Assembly (NCBI GenBank): GCA_965232515.1
Contig: CBDDPY010000002.1
Coordinates: forward strand, 576,001-640,000
Direction: 5' to 3'
DNA from: Alphaproteobacteria bacterium
GTDB taxonomy: Bacteria; Pseudomonadota; Alphaproteobacteria; GCA-2731375
Length of the DNA stretch: 64,000 nt
The position numbers and the translations under genes were made by a program. The stretch's first letter is position 1. Each line of letters starts with the position of its first letter. The notes beneath the pieces were generated by a model. The model saw only the letters and a program-made list of their open reading frames with translations, was not told the origin of the DNA and did no database searches. Below, in pieces: positions 1,244 to 3,798 of this stretch.

Positions 1244-2287
1244 TCAAACCGTGGCGATGGGATTGGCGGGCGAACCGACGGCCCCCGGAAGCCTCAGCGG
1301 CGGCGCCGTCAGCAGGAACCGGTTGCGGCCGTTGGCCCGCAGCCAGGCCGCGAATTCGCTCAAGTACCAGATCTCACCCAAGGGGATCCCCAGCTTGAAC
1401 AGGCAGTGCTCGTGCAGGGGCAGCATCGTATGGCAGTCGCCCTCGCCAGGGCTCGAGGGGTGCGCCTCGACCGCGTAATTGTCGGCGATCAGCGCAACAA
1501 CACCGCTGTCGGTGACCCACTGCAGCAGGTCAGGATCCCGTCCATCCAGCGCGGCGCAGGCATTGTGCAGGACATCGACATCCGGCTGGCCGTCCATTTC
1601 CAGGATCCGGTCGGCGAAACCGGTGTGGAAGCAGACCATGTCGCCCTGTTCCACGACGACGTTGTCGGCTTCCATGACGTCTTTGAGATCGGCATAGGTC
1701 ACGAGCTTGCGGTCATCACCGAAATGGGCGCGCAGATCGATCATCACGCCACGGCCCTGGATCGGCTTCGCCGCCATGTTCTCGATGCCGAGCGCCGAGA
1801 CGCCGGAATACTCCTGTCCTGTTGGCCGGTCGCCGTCGTGGAAATCGACCGGGCCGACCACGTGTTCGCCGCCGCGATAGCCGTTGTAGTAGACGACTTC
1901 CGGCTGGCCATCGCCGTCGGCGTCGAAGTATTGGCCGACATGGGCGAGCGAATCCCACTGACTTGAATACTGCGTCCACAGCAACACCGCATCGTCACTA
2001 ATGATATCGGGGTAGGCGGCATCTATCCGGGCGGCGGGGAAATTGATGAAGGGCGTGCCGTCGAGTTCGGTCGGACGCAACACCGGCGCGTAACGCCGTG
2101 GGTTTAAAAGGTTCTTGCCCGGCAGATTCAAGGGCAGGCTGAGGCAGAAGGACAGGCCGTCGCGCACCTCGGCGACACCCTGCTTGACTTTTTCCGGTGT
2201 CAGCAGGTTCAGACGGCCGAGCTGGTCGTCCGGACCGAAGTCGCCCCAGTTGGAACCTTCCGGCCGGTTTTTCCAACGTTCCGACAT
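1244..2287 (-). CDS. Cyclase family (kynurenine formamidase-like) metal-dependent hydrolase
   Basis: SNWGDFGPDDQLGRLNLL, QYSSQWDSLAH, LGEIWYL and APPLRLPGAVGSP motifs; ATG 2287 with AAGGAG RBS. Confidence 0.85.
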   Translation of the reverse strand: MSERWKNRPEGSNWGDFGPDDQLGRLNLLTPEKVKQGVAEVRDGLSFCLSLPLNLPGKNLLNPRRYAPVLRPTELDGTPFINFPAARIDAAYPDIISDDAVLLWTQYSSQWDSLAHVGQYFDADGDGQPEVVYYNGYRGGEHVVGPVDFHDGDRPTGQEYSGVSALGIENMAAKPIQGRGVMIDLRAHFGDDRKLVTYADLKDVMEADNVVVEQGDMVCFHTGFADRILEMDGQPDVDVLHNACAALDGRDPDLLQWVTDSGVVALIADNYAVEAHPSSPGEGDCHTMLPLHEHCLFKLGIPLGEIWYLSEFAAWLRANGRNRFLLTAPPLRLPGAVGSPANPIATV

Positions 2288-2388: not shown

Positions 2389-2430
2389 TTGATCAAAGTC
2401 AATGTTGCCCCTGTGCGGGGGACCTAGGCT
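2389..2430 (+). promoter_or_regulatory. FNR/FixK-type class II promoter
   Basis: TTGATCAAAGTCAA at 2389-2402 (consensus TTGAT-N4-ATCAA, one mismatch); TAGGCT -10 at 2425-2430 implies +1 near 2437, placing the box centre at -41.5. Confidence 0.7.
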
Positions 2431-2436
2431 GACGAT

Positions 2437-2628
2437 CCGGCCAGCATCGTTTCGGCAACTCGATCGCTGCTGACCGGGCCGATCGACAGGTGACCCCAAA
2501 CCCGTCGGTCGAGCGTCCCCTGGCGCTGCATCCCCCTGCTAGCGCCGAGGGCTGTGGTTCCCCATCCACAGCCCTCACACTATTCGGAAATCGGCCGCGA
2601 CGGTTCGCCGTCGCGGCCTTTCTGTTTT
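2437..2628 (+). ncRNA. Candidate small RNA with multiple C-rich loops
   Basis: Own promoter and terminator, no ATG-started ORF inside. Hairpins 2437-2477, 2480-2511 (loop UGACCCCAAA), 2522-2546 (loop UCCCCC), 2547-2576 (perfect 11-bp stem, loop UUCCCCAU), plus linker UCCCC at 2516-2520. Confidence 0.7.
2593..2628 (+). terminator. Intrinsic terminator
   Basis: GGCCGCGACGG-TTCG-CCGTCGCGGCC (perfect 11-bp stem, UUCG loop) followed by TTTCTGTTTT. Confidence 0.85.
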
Positions 2629-2691
2629 GGGCATGATGGGATTGGATGTGACGCCGTTGACAGCCAGGTGGCCGCGTCCTACCAGTGCGCA

Positions 2692-3798
2692 ATGCGCATC
2701 ACCGACATCACCATCAGTCAGCACCGACTGCCGCTCGATCCGGCTTTCAATGCGGCCTGGGACGGCCGGCCCCGCACGCAGTTCGACGCGACCATCGTTC
2801 GGGTCAGCTGCGATAACGGCATGGCGGGGATCGGCTCCGGCGACCTGATGGTCGGTTTCGCGGGCCATGAAGAGCTGTTCATCGGCCGCGATCCGCGCGA
2901 CCTCGAGCGCCATTGGCGCGTGCTGGACAATATTGCCTTTCACTATGGCCGCTGCTGGCCGCTCGACTGCGCGCTTTGGGATCTGGCCGCGAAGATCGAC
3001 GATCAGCCGCTTTATCGACGGCTGGGCGGCGCTGAAAATCGTGTCCGGGCCTACGCCTCCACCGGCACGCTGCGGTCGCCGGAAGAAACGGCCGATGTCG
3101 CCGAACGCCTGCTGGCCGACGGCTTTGGCGCCATGAAGATCCGGTTCCATCGACCGGACTGGCGCGACGATGTCAAGGCGATCGAGCGGGTGCGCGCGCA
3201 GGTGGGCGACCGGATCGAGATCATGGTCGACTGCAATCAGGGCTGGCGCATGCCATGGGACACCGATGATCCCTGGGATGTCGAGATGGCGCTGGAGGTC
3301 GGACGTGTTCTTCAGTCTTTGGGCGTCTATTGGATGGAGGAACCGCTGCATCGCGGCGACTATGTCGGCATGACGTGCCTGCGACAGGAATTGGAGATCC
3401 GGATCGGCGGCGCCGAGATGACGCGCGAGCTGCATGAGCTCGAGACATTGATCGAGCGGGAGTGTCTCGACGTCATGCAGGCGGACGCCGTGCTGACCGG
3501 CGGGATTGGCGGGCTCGCGCGTATCGCCCGGAAGGCCAATGAGGCCGGTATGATCTTCTCGCCGCATACCTGGACCAACGGCGTCGGCGTGCTGGCCAAC
3601 GCCCATCTGGCCGCCGCGTTCGGGCCGCCGCCCTGGCTCGAATTTCCTTTCGATCCGCCGGAGTGGACGCCGGCGCGTCGGGACTACATGCTTAGATCGC
3701 CGCTCGAGGCCGTTGACGGCTGGGTCGTCCTGCCGGACGCGCCCGGTCTCGGCGTCGATCTGGACGAGGAACGGCTGGCAGACACGCGTATCGGCTAG
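2692..3798 (+). CDS. Mandelate racemase/muconate lactonizing enzyme (enolase superfamily) protein
   Basis: LDCALWDLAAK, MKIR, MVDCNQG, WMEEPL and PDAPGLGVDLD motifs; ATG 2692. Confidence 0.9.
   Translation: MRITDITISQHRLPLDPAFNAAWDGRPRTQFDATIVRVSCDNGMAGIGSGDLMVGFAGHEELFIGRDPRDLERHWRVLDNIAFHYGRCWPLDCALWDLAAKIDDQPLYRRLGGAENRVRAYASTGTLRSPEETADVAERLLADGFGAMKIRFHRPDWRDDVKAIERVRAQVGDRIEIMVDCNQGWRMPWDTDDPWDVEMALEVGRVLQSLGVYWMEEPLHRGDYVGMTCLRQELEIRIGGAEMTRELHELETLIERECLDVMQADAVLTGGIGGLARIARKANEAGMIFSPHTWTNGVGVLANAHLAAAFGPPPWLEFPFDPPEWTPARRDYMLRSPLEAVDGWVVLPDAPGLGVDLDEERLADTRIG

Follow-up and report, generated by a model that had tools for sequence, protein, structure and literature searches.

Between two divergent genes, a 'putative cyclase' gene (PF04199, positions 1244–2287, minus strand) and an enolase-superfamily gene (MR_MLE, 2692–3798, plus strand, with its ATG at 2692), lies a gap of 404 nt (2288–2691). 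The question raised by this locus is whether the gap holds a gene of its own and, if so, what such a gene would do. All positions are those of the window, i.e. the whole stretch of 64,000 nucleotides that was analysed, corresponding to G000:C2:576001-640000 in a host genome (G000) of 7.39 Mb and 65.5% G+C. Two other contigs of this assembly, C3 (5516 bp) and C4 (10862 bp), have a G+C content of 45.8% and 42.3%, respectively, against 65.5% for the main contig, and are probably foreign or contaminant assembly pieces. The original prediction had placed in the gap a small RNA with its own FNR/FixK-type promoter, repeated C-rich motifs and a terminator, and all the elements that it listed were found in place between 2389 and 2628. 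Judging from sequence comparisons, we identify this unit as a non-coding RNA gene, conserved and previously undescribed, in one order of mostly marine alphaproteobacteria.

The unit opens with an FNR/FixK/Dnr-type box, TTGATCAAAGTCAA (2389–2402, plus strand), which agrees with nine of the ten positions of TTGAT-N4-ATCAA, the FNR consensus as given in PMC3688515. A −10 hexamer, TAGGCT (2425–2430, plus strand), follows 22 nt past the box with no −35 hexamer, which is a class II geometry. In 22 of the 24 genomes found to carry the RNA (see below) the box departs from the consensus at one position at most; in G013 it has two mismatches and there is no clear terminator, and in G043 the RNA and a TATATT hexamer are kept and the box is absent. 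The distance from box to hexamer (TAnnnT) is fixed at 22 nt in the 21 distinct sequences that have the box, with the hexamer conserved at T1 (17 of 21), A2 (18 of 21) and T6 (20 of 21). The 22-nt spacer itself is unconserved except for a TG right after the box, and no −35 hexamer for the RNA is conserved among these 21 sequences. From the 22-nt spacing, transcription is predicted to start near 2437, which would place the box (centre 2395.5) at about −41.5; in E. coli the site of FNR-activated promoters lies mostly near −41.5, and that of fnrS at −42.5 (PMC3688515). Because the RNA lacks a conserved −35 hexamer, its promoter should need an activator. The conserved box and the fixed spacing to the −10 bear out, with exceptionally clean comparative support, the claim that the RNA has a class II promoter of its own. 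By its layout, and with a start position that is predicted, this promoter fits the FNR/FixK type, a class within which the box alone cannot distinguish FNR, FixK and Dnr-type regulators.

Downstream of the hexamer, RNAfold predicts a compact series of plus-strand elements. The 5′ end (about 2435–2438), placed near 2437 solely by the promoter geometry, would be followed at once by hairpin 1 (2437–2477), the sequence of which differs between genera, and by hairpin 2 (2478–2514), with a loop GACCCCAA that includes CCCC at 2494–2497 and is a genus-specific motif. Next come an unpaired linker, GUCCCCU (2515–2521, candidate seed 1), hairpin 3 with the loop UCCCCC (2522–2546, candidate seed 2) and hairpin 4 with the loop UUCCCCAU (2547–2576, candidate seed 3). 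An A/U-rich stretch (2577–2592) precedes the main terminator stem; its first part (2577–2584) is unpaired in the predicted fold and 2585–2590 pairs weakly with the U-tract, and the whole is a candidate Hfq site, where binding of Hfq is possible. The unit closes with an intrinsic terminator found by a terminator scan (2593–2628), in which a GC-rich stem of 11 bp (2593–2618) with a UUCG loop is followed by the tail UUUCUGUUUU.

Two promoter-like sequences lie outside the RNA, on its downstream side. In the window, TTGACA-N17-TACCAG (2657–2685, plus strand) was recognized by eye ahead of the enolase-family gene; it had been missed by our promoter scan because the scan rule needs a T at the last −10 position. 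It ends 6 nt short of the enolase-family ATG with no Shine-Dalgarno sequence between, possible explanations being a leaderless mRNA and a true start codon further downstream. Among the relatives, CTCTTGCCAG-N(about 18)-GCGATGAT(G) is found between the RNA terminator and an iron-type alcohol dehydrogenase (Fe-ADH) gene at L010, L014, L015, L016, L018, L020, L025 and L038. This motif of the largest genus looks like a −35/−10 pair, and had no Rfam match at E up to 1.

The fold was assessed by its stability and by covariation among homologues. The segment 2436–2628 folds at −107.6 kcal/mol (z = −9.3), and none of 200 shuffled sequences was as stable. A consensus fold of 16 full-length sequences contains 45 pairs, 15 of them with compensatory changes. 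Such changes are present in both 5′ hairpins, though their sequences diverge greatly: the inner helix of hairpin 1 covaries (CG:6/UA:6 and GC:7/AU:4 in the 16-sequence alignment), and so does the helix of hairpin 2. For the 3′ module, 19 sequences could be aligned, in which 98.2% of the cells are paired and 10 of the 33 pairs have changed on both sides; none of 500 shuffles matched any of these measures, and slid controls reached 38–50% paired. Hairpin 3 (nine pairs, 98.8% of cells paired) has one compensatory pair and eight pairs that never vary, and hairpin 4 (11 pairs, 99.0% paired) has two compensatory pairs (UA to CG) and eight that never vary. The terminator stem varies freely, with compensatory changes in seven of 13 pairs. 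Folding and homologue covariation had been proposed as a check on the prediction, and it came out in favour of the RNA, every helix having compensatory changes. An antiterminator was also looked for by eye, and no conserved alternative pairing with the 5′ arm of the terminator was found.

The number of C-runs is by itself unremarkable, since the four CCCC in 192 nt of C-rich sequence compare with about two expected by simple arithmetic. All four, however, are unpaired in the predicted fold, and some of them have been retained with little or no change. The C-run motifs of loops 3 and 4 are invariant in all 19 aligned homologues, including the CCCAUCC of the hairpin 4 loop. The linker CCCC is retained in 17 of the 19 aligned sequences and replaced by UCCC in two genomes that have a short form of the RNA; one further genome has CUCC. 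The CCCC in the loop of hairpin 2 is common only to the window and the other genome of the same genus (L009). The suggestion of four C-run seeds therefore stands for the window's genus; across the family it does not, as only the CCCC of the linker, loop 3 and loop 4 are kept there. In the short form, found in two genomes of one genus, the box stands 56–58 nt ahead of the core; the predicted RNA, some 115 nt long, would consist of the linker, hairpins 3 and 4 and the terminator.

Open reading frames of 48 aa (plus strand) and 97 aa (minus strand) overlap the unit and were considered as possible small proteins. They were ruled out by 1-nt indels that fall inside the near-invariant core, so that no reading frame is conserved. 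Covariation, these frame-breaking indels, a promoter of its own and a conserved intrinsic terminator all agree with the original description of a complete non-coding unit.

We then delimited the distribution of the RNA by sequence searches of increasing breadth. A blastn query with 2380–2640 matched 17 of 24 further genomes from the window's family and none of 16 from other families. When 185,579 species genomes were scanned for an exact pattern, 45 stretches came up, 20 of which had the full core and were labelled 'Alphaproteobacteria bacterium' or 'Rhodospirillaceae bacterium'; the remaining 25 were chance matches in unrelated taxa, including a terminator of Inquilinus. Removal of duplicates left 22 distinct sequences, window included. 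Of the 33 genomes in the window's order, which comprises this one family only, 25 were matched by a covariance model of the 3′ module (R1). The match in G005 was merely a terminator after a protein gene, so the real carriers number 24 of 33; they are spread over five of the eight genera, with one copy per genome. No credible R1 match was found in 150 genomes, one per family, from the rest of the class, and four weak matches outside the order (26–29 bits, E 0.004–0.01) proved to be terminators at the ends of protein genes, with no core. The window's own genome, too, has a single copy, and candidate paralogues there were only short terminator-like matches. Most carriers are known as metagenome-assembled genomes alone, and several homologue records have titles that point to samples from the marine water column. 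The gene found most consistently beside the RNA is a DUF2336 gene (2–1054 in the window, and in the loci of relatives), which is upstream and divergent in 17 of the 22 distinct loci, across genera; a functional link between the two is possible.

Public transcript data offered one suggestive observation. A metatranscriptome contig of 154 nt covers 2445–2583 only, with a single difference and a terminal adapter, and the flanks of the RNA are uncovered in the same run. This would fit an abundant, discrete RNA with a 5′ end near the predicted 2437, or could be library DNA. Two RNA-seq runs of a relative that is 95–99% identical covered flanks and RNA alike at low, flat depth and were uninformative, as was a poly(A) RNA-seq run with nothing at the locus.

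Elsewhere in its genome, the host has this type of box at classical places. The motif TTGAY-N4-RTCAA occurs 41 times in 7.3 Mb, compared with a mean of 9.3 for the 59 other permutations of the half-sites; it ranks third of the 60, behind two that overlap the FNR consensus. Upstream of ccoN-ccoO we found TTGATCGAAATCAAtgttgc...CAGTCT, resembling the TTGATCAAAGTCAAtgttgc...TAGGCT of the RNA, and two boxes precede narK-narK-narG, beside a gene for a Dnr-like regulator. The genome has 12 Crp/Fnr-family genes, including two regulators with an N-terminal CX2CX7C and a central Cys, one that is FixK-like and one that is Dnr-like; these types were assigned from the CX2CX7C...C cysteine pattern, which we take to be that of FNR-type proteins. 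It also encodes Hfq (110.8 bits).

A few other boxes in this genome deserve mention in their own right. Eight of FNR type are found within 18 kb at G000:C2:7187715-7205436 (loci L071 and L072), a region with genes for an FNR-type regulator, a PEP synthase/PPDK-like protein, an AMP-binding enzyme, NfeD/Band 7 and a Dnr-like regulator, together with narK-narK-narG; this region is a low-oxygen island. At G000:C2:1950080 (plus strand), a box is followed after 22 nt by TAGGTT, and about 120 nt further on by a good ribosome-binding site and an ORF of 151 aa, making it a second host promoter with a TAGGnT −10 at class II distance. On the minus strand of the G000:C2:2621118 region (L112, about 2400–2514), a TTGAY-N4-RTCAA box is followed after 22 nt by CCAGTC, then by about 25 nt with CCUCCCU and a GC-rich hairpin with a T7 tail, some 330 nt before the next ORF on the same strand. 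To judge by its layout, this site may encode another RNA driven by an FNR box, very short and with an anti-Shine-Dalgarno-like motif.

The reading that we favour, and consider rather probable, is that of a stand-alone RNA of about 190 nt, made from a class II promoter of FNR/FixK/Dnr type, that blocks ribosome-binding sites with its C-runs, probably together with Hfq. An FNR/FixK/Dnr-type dimer bound at 2389–2402 would replace the −35 contact, so that the RNA would be made at low oxygen or in response to signals of NO or nitrate respiration; the boxes before ccoN-ccoO and narK-narG and the encoded FNR-type regulators lend such control indirect support. Transcription of 2437–2628 (plus strand) would stop at the UUCG-capped terminator. 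The active part would be the conserved 3′ module, i.e. the linker GUCCCCU, hairpins 3 and 4, the A/U-rich stretch and the terminator, with its unpaired C-runs pairing to the G-rich ribosome-binding sites of several mRNAs and so blocking their translation, probably with the involvement of Hfq. The 5′ hairpins are a lineage-specific extension, which one genus does without and in which the window's genus carries a fourth CCCC, on hairpin 2. Given the FNR/FixK-type promoter and the C-rich loops, the RNA is probably a low-oxygen regulator of translation. The comparisons establish the gene, its structure and conservation, and the conserved architecture of its promoter; from these we infer the 5′ end, the oxygen response, the dependence on Hfq, the anti-Shine-Dalgarno action and all targets.

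Divergent and downstream genes allow two other ways of reading the same elements. The box could control the protein gene that diverges from the RNA, which is the putative cyclase gene here and DUF2336 in some relatives, with the RNA transcribed independently of oxygen from its −10. Boxes for Fnr and Dnr do work both ways, as described for nirS/nosR2 of Dinoroseobacter (PMC5398030); the window box is 108 nt before the cyclase ATG, DUF2336 starts about 100–130 nt from the box position in six unique loci (L038, L064, L095, L091, L092 and L023), and G043, as noted above, has the RNA and its hexamer with no box. Against this, the cyclase side has GCGCCC at the expected −10 position, and the cyclase gene adjoins the RNA solely in the window's genus, so that the original prediction survives the case envisaged as fatal to it, in which the box would serve the divergent cyclase gene alone. 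In the largest genus the box comes directly after the end of a small same-strand gene, with the start of DUF2336 some 700 nt off; even so, both the box and the 22 nt that separate it from the −10 of the RNA are retained. As no divergent gene adjoins the box in that genus, we take the box to serve the RNA, which with no conserved −35 hexamer should in any case need an activator, and we regard exclusive control of the divergent gene as very unlikely; bidirectional use where a divergent gene is close is possible, but the RNA is the only constant partner. A cis-acting role is retained as a minor rival because, at about half of the loci, the next gene downstream of the RNA is on the same strand. 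The FNR-type promoter would then drive these downstream genes (Fe-ADH in most relatives; the enolase-family, ABM and alcohol dehydrogenase genes here), and the structured RNA with its terminator would be an attenuator or riboswitch gating read-through. A full-length Fe-ADH gene is found downstream on the same strand in 11 of the 22 unique loci, and in the window an alcohol dehydrogenase comes after the enolase-family gene and an ABM gene, both inserted; induction of alcohol dehydrogenase at low oxygen would make physiological sense. However, the strong terminator is conserved and covaries, core and ADH are separated by anything from 160 to 387 nt, and five complete loci have other downstream genes (e.g. 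SIR2-family) with an unchanged RNA core. Moreover, the largest genus has a separate conserved promoter-like motif between terminator and ADH, and in the window TTGACA-N17-TACCAG stands between the terminator and the next gene, before the ATG at 2692, which agrees with the earlier view that the RNA is separate from the gene downstream. Overall, we hold a leader function to be unlikely.

In a further alternative, this would be a real RNA under FNR-type control that binds a protein or sponges other RNAs through its C-rich loops instead of pairing with ribosome-binding sites. The loops and stems of hairpins 3 and 4 are indeed near-invariant (eight of nine and eight of 11 pairs fixed), beyond what the presentation of a seed needs, and start regions complementary to the C-runs are not enriched. 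The latter result comes from a search of the host's own genome only, with crude ORF-based gene calls (5693 ORFs and their start regions), in which GGGG occurs in 18% of start regions. Perfect complements of at least 9 nt were found in 25 start regions of this one genome, compared with 28.1 ± 9.1 for 200 seeds with shuffled flanks, 123 of which reached 25. Exact complements of 7–10 nt were likewise no commoner in this genome than for shuffled-flank seeds, and the duplex energies of four segments of the sRNA barely set start regions apart from intragenic controls. With no enrichment in the search, we name no targets. Against this alternative, the target search was a crude one of a single genome, no candidate partner is known for a protein-binding or sponging RNA, and known anti-Shine-Dalgarno sRNAs have the same arrangement of repeated unpaired C-runs beside an intrinsic terminator, as described in PMC4409812. 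We thus consider protein binding or sponging quite unlikely.

Returning to the reading of a low-oxygen sRNA that blocks ribosome-binding sites, a wider proposal can be made, one that we advance tentatively and put slightly short of an even call. In it, the RNA would be the founding member of an undescribed, modular sRNA family through which the FNR/FixK low-oxygen regulon acts post-transcriptionally in one order of mostly uncultured alphaproteobacteria. Jointly with this, and just as tentatively, the near-invariant 3′ unit with three C-run seeds would be the working part, with a 5′ extension gained by lineages and a fourth seed by this genus. What makes the RNA a clear candidate, on comparative grounds, for an sRNA behind a consensus FNR/FixK box is the conserved box, the fixed class II spacing, the covarying helices and the invariant C-run loops. 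If true, a post-transcriptional layer would be added to models of the switch to cbb3 oxidase and nitrate respiration, metatranscriptomes would gain a compact marker transcript for low-oxygen physiology, and the short and long forms would provide a natural series for studying seed evolution and the growth of multi-seed sRNAs.

How does the RNA compare with known families? When the window and the loci of relatives were scanned against Rfam 15 (FnrS, RsaE, ar14 and 4227 other families), none reached its gathering score, so that novelty with respect to Rfam, which a strong hit would have removed, is upheld. For the exact 206 nt, the best scores against the gathering scores were Pxr 26.1/80, ar7 23.2/60 and ar15 19.7/40; membership of ar7, Pxr, ar15, Mcr7 and others was rejected as sub-threshold in every case, with ar7 the nearest look-alike. 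The ar7 model (RF02342) scored 31.7 bits in L018, the only one of the 16 relatives' loci to give a match at E up to 1. Cuckoo/alpha-r14 (CcsR) and alpha-r15 (AbcR) are alphaproteobacterial sRNAs with unpaired C-rich anti-Shine-Dalgarno motifs. The cuckoo motif, which we take to be CCUCCUCCC, is absent here, where the motif is (U/A)CCCC, and the gene is single copy rather than part of a multi-copy family.

FnrS-type FNR-activated sRNAs that silence aerobic functions are well studied in enterobacteria, and RoxS/RsaE are their functional counterparts in Firmicutes. Like the RNA described here, FnrS is a stand-alone sRNA with a class II FNR site in its promoter (−42.5 in fnrS, PMC3688515). Cells produce it when oxygen is absent, and it represses many mRNAs that are then dispensable (PMC8139620). 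It belongs to a different phylogenetic class, and the present RNA is longer, has several repeated C-run seeds and had no Rfam match to FnrS at E up to 10. RoxS/RsaE of Bacillus and Staphylococcus share with our RNA several unpaired C-rich regions; in their case, these regions have three or four C and bind G-rich Shine-Dalgarno sequences by base-pairing, and the two sRNAs are induced via ResDE/SrrAB, which sense low O2 and NO (PMC4409812). Unlike it, they are from Firmicutes and have a two-component activator instead of an FNR box, and no Rfam match to them was found here. Alpha-r7/Smr7C (RF02342) of the Rhizobiales is similar in having two hairpins with C-rich loops and a terminator, and in being a single-copy intergenic gene (PMC3346310). 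It differs in that scores fall far under the threshold of 60 and alpha-r7 has been traced among Rhizobiales (PMC3346310); that paper cites a sigma-70 consensus for such promoters and mentions neither 'FNR' nor 'FixK'. PcrZ of Rhodobacter sphaeroides is also an alphaproteobacterial low-oxygen sRNA, which depends on PrrA and FnrL (PMC8139620). Control of PcrZ by FnrL may be indirect (PMC8139620), in contrast to the consensus box at a class II position found here; the Rfam scans gave no PcrZ match, and Rfam may hold no model for it. PcrZ is the only such sRNA listed for the Alphaproteobacteria in the same review. In literature searches on ar7, on sRNAs linked to FnrL or FixK, and on FnrS in Alphaproteobacteria, we found no description of this family, and no alphaproteobacterial sRNA behind a consensus FNR/FixK box. 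The sRNA family is new, its kind is known, and it brings no new principle. Its predicted layout, with repeated unpaired C-runs, an A/U-rich stretch, an intrinsic terminator and a host that encodes Hfq, matches that of known anti-Shine-Dalgarno sRNAs, and it would be a functional analogue of FnrS and RoxS/RsaE.
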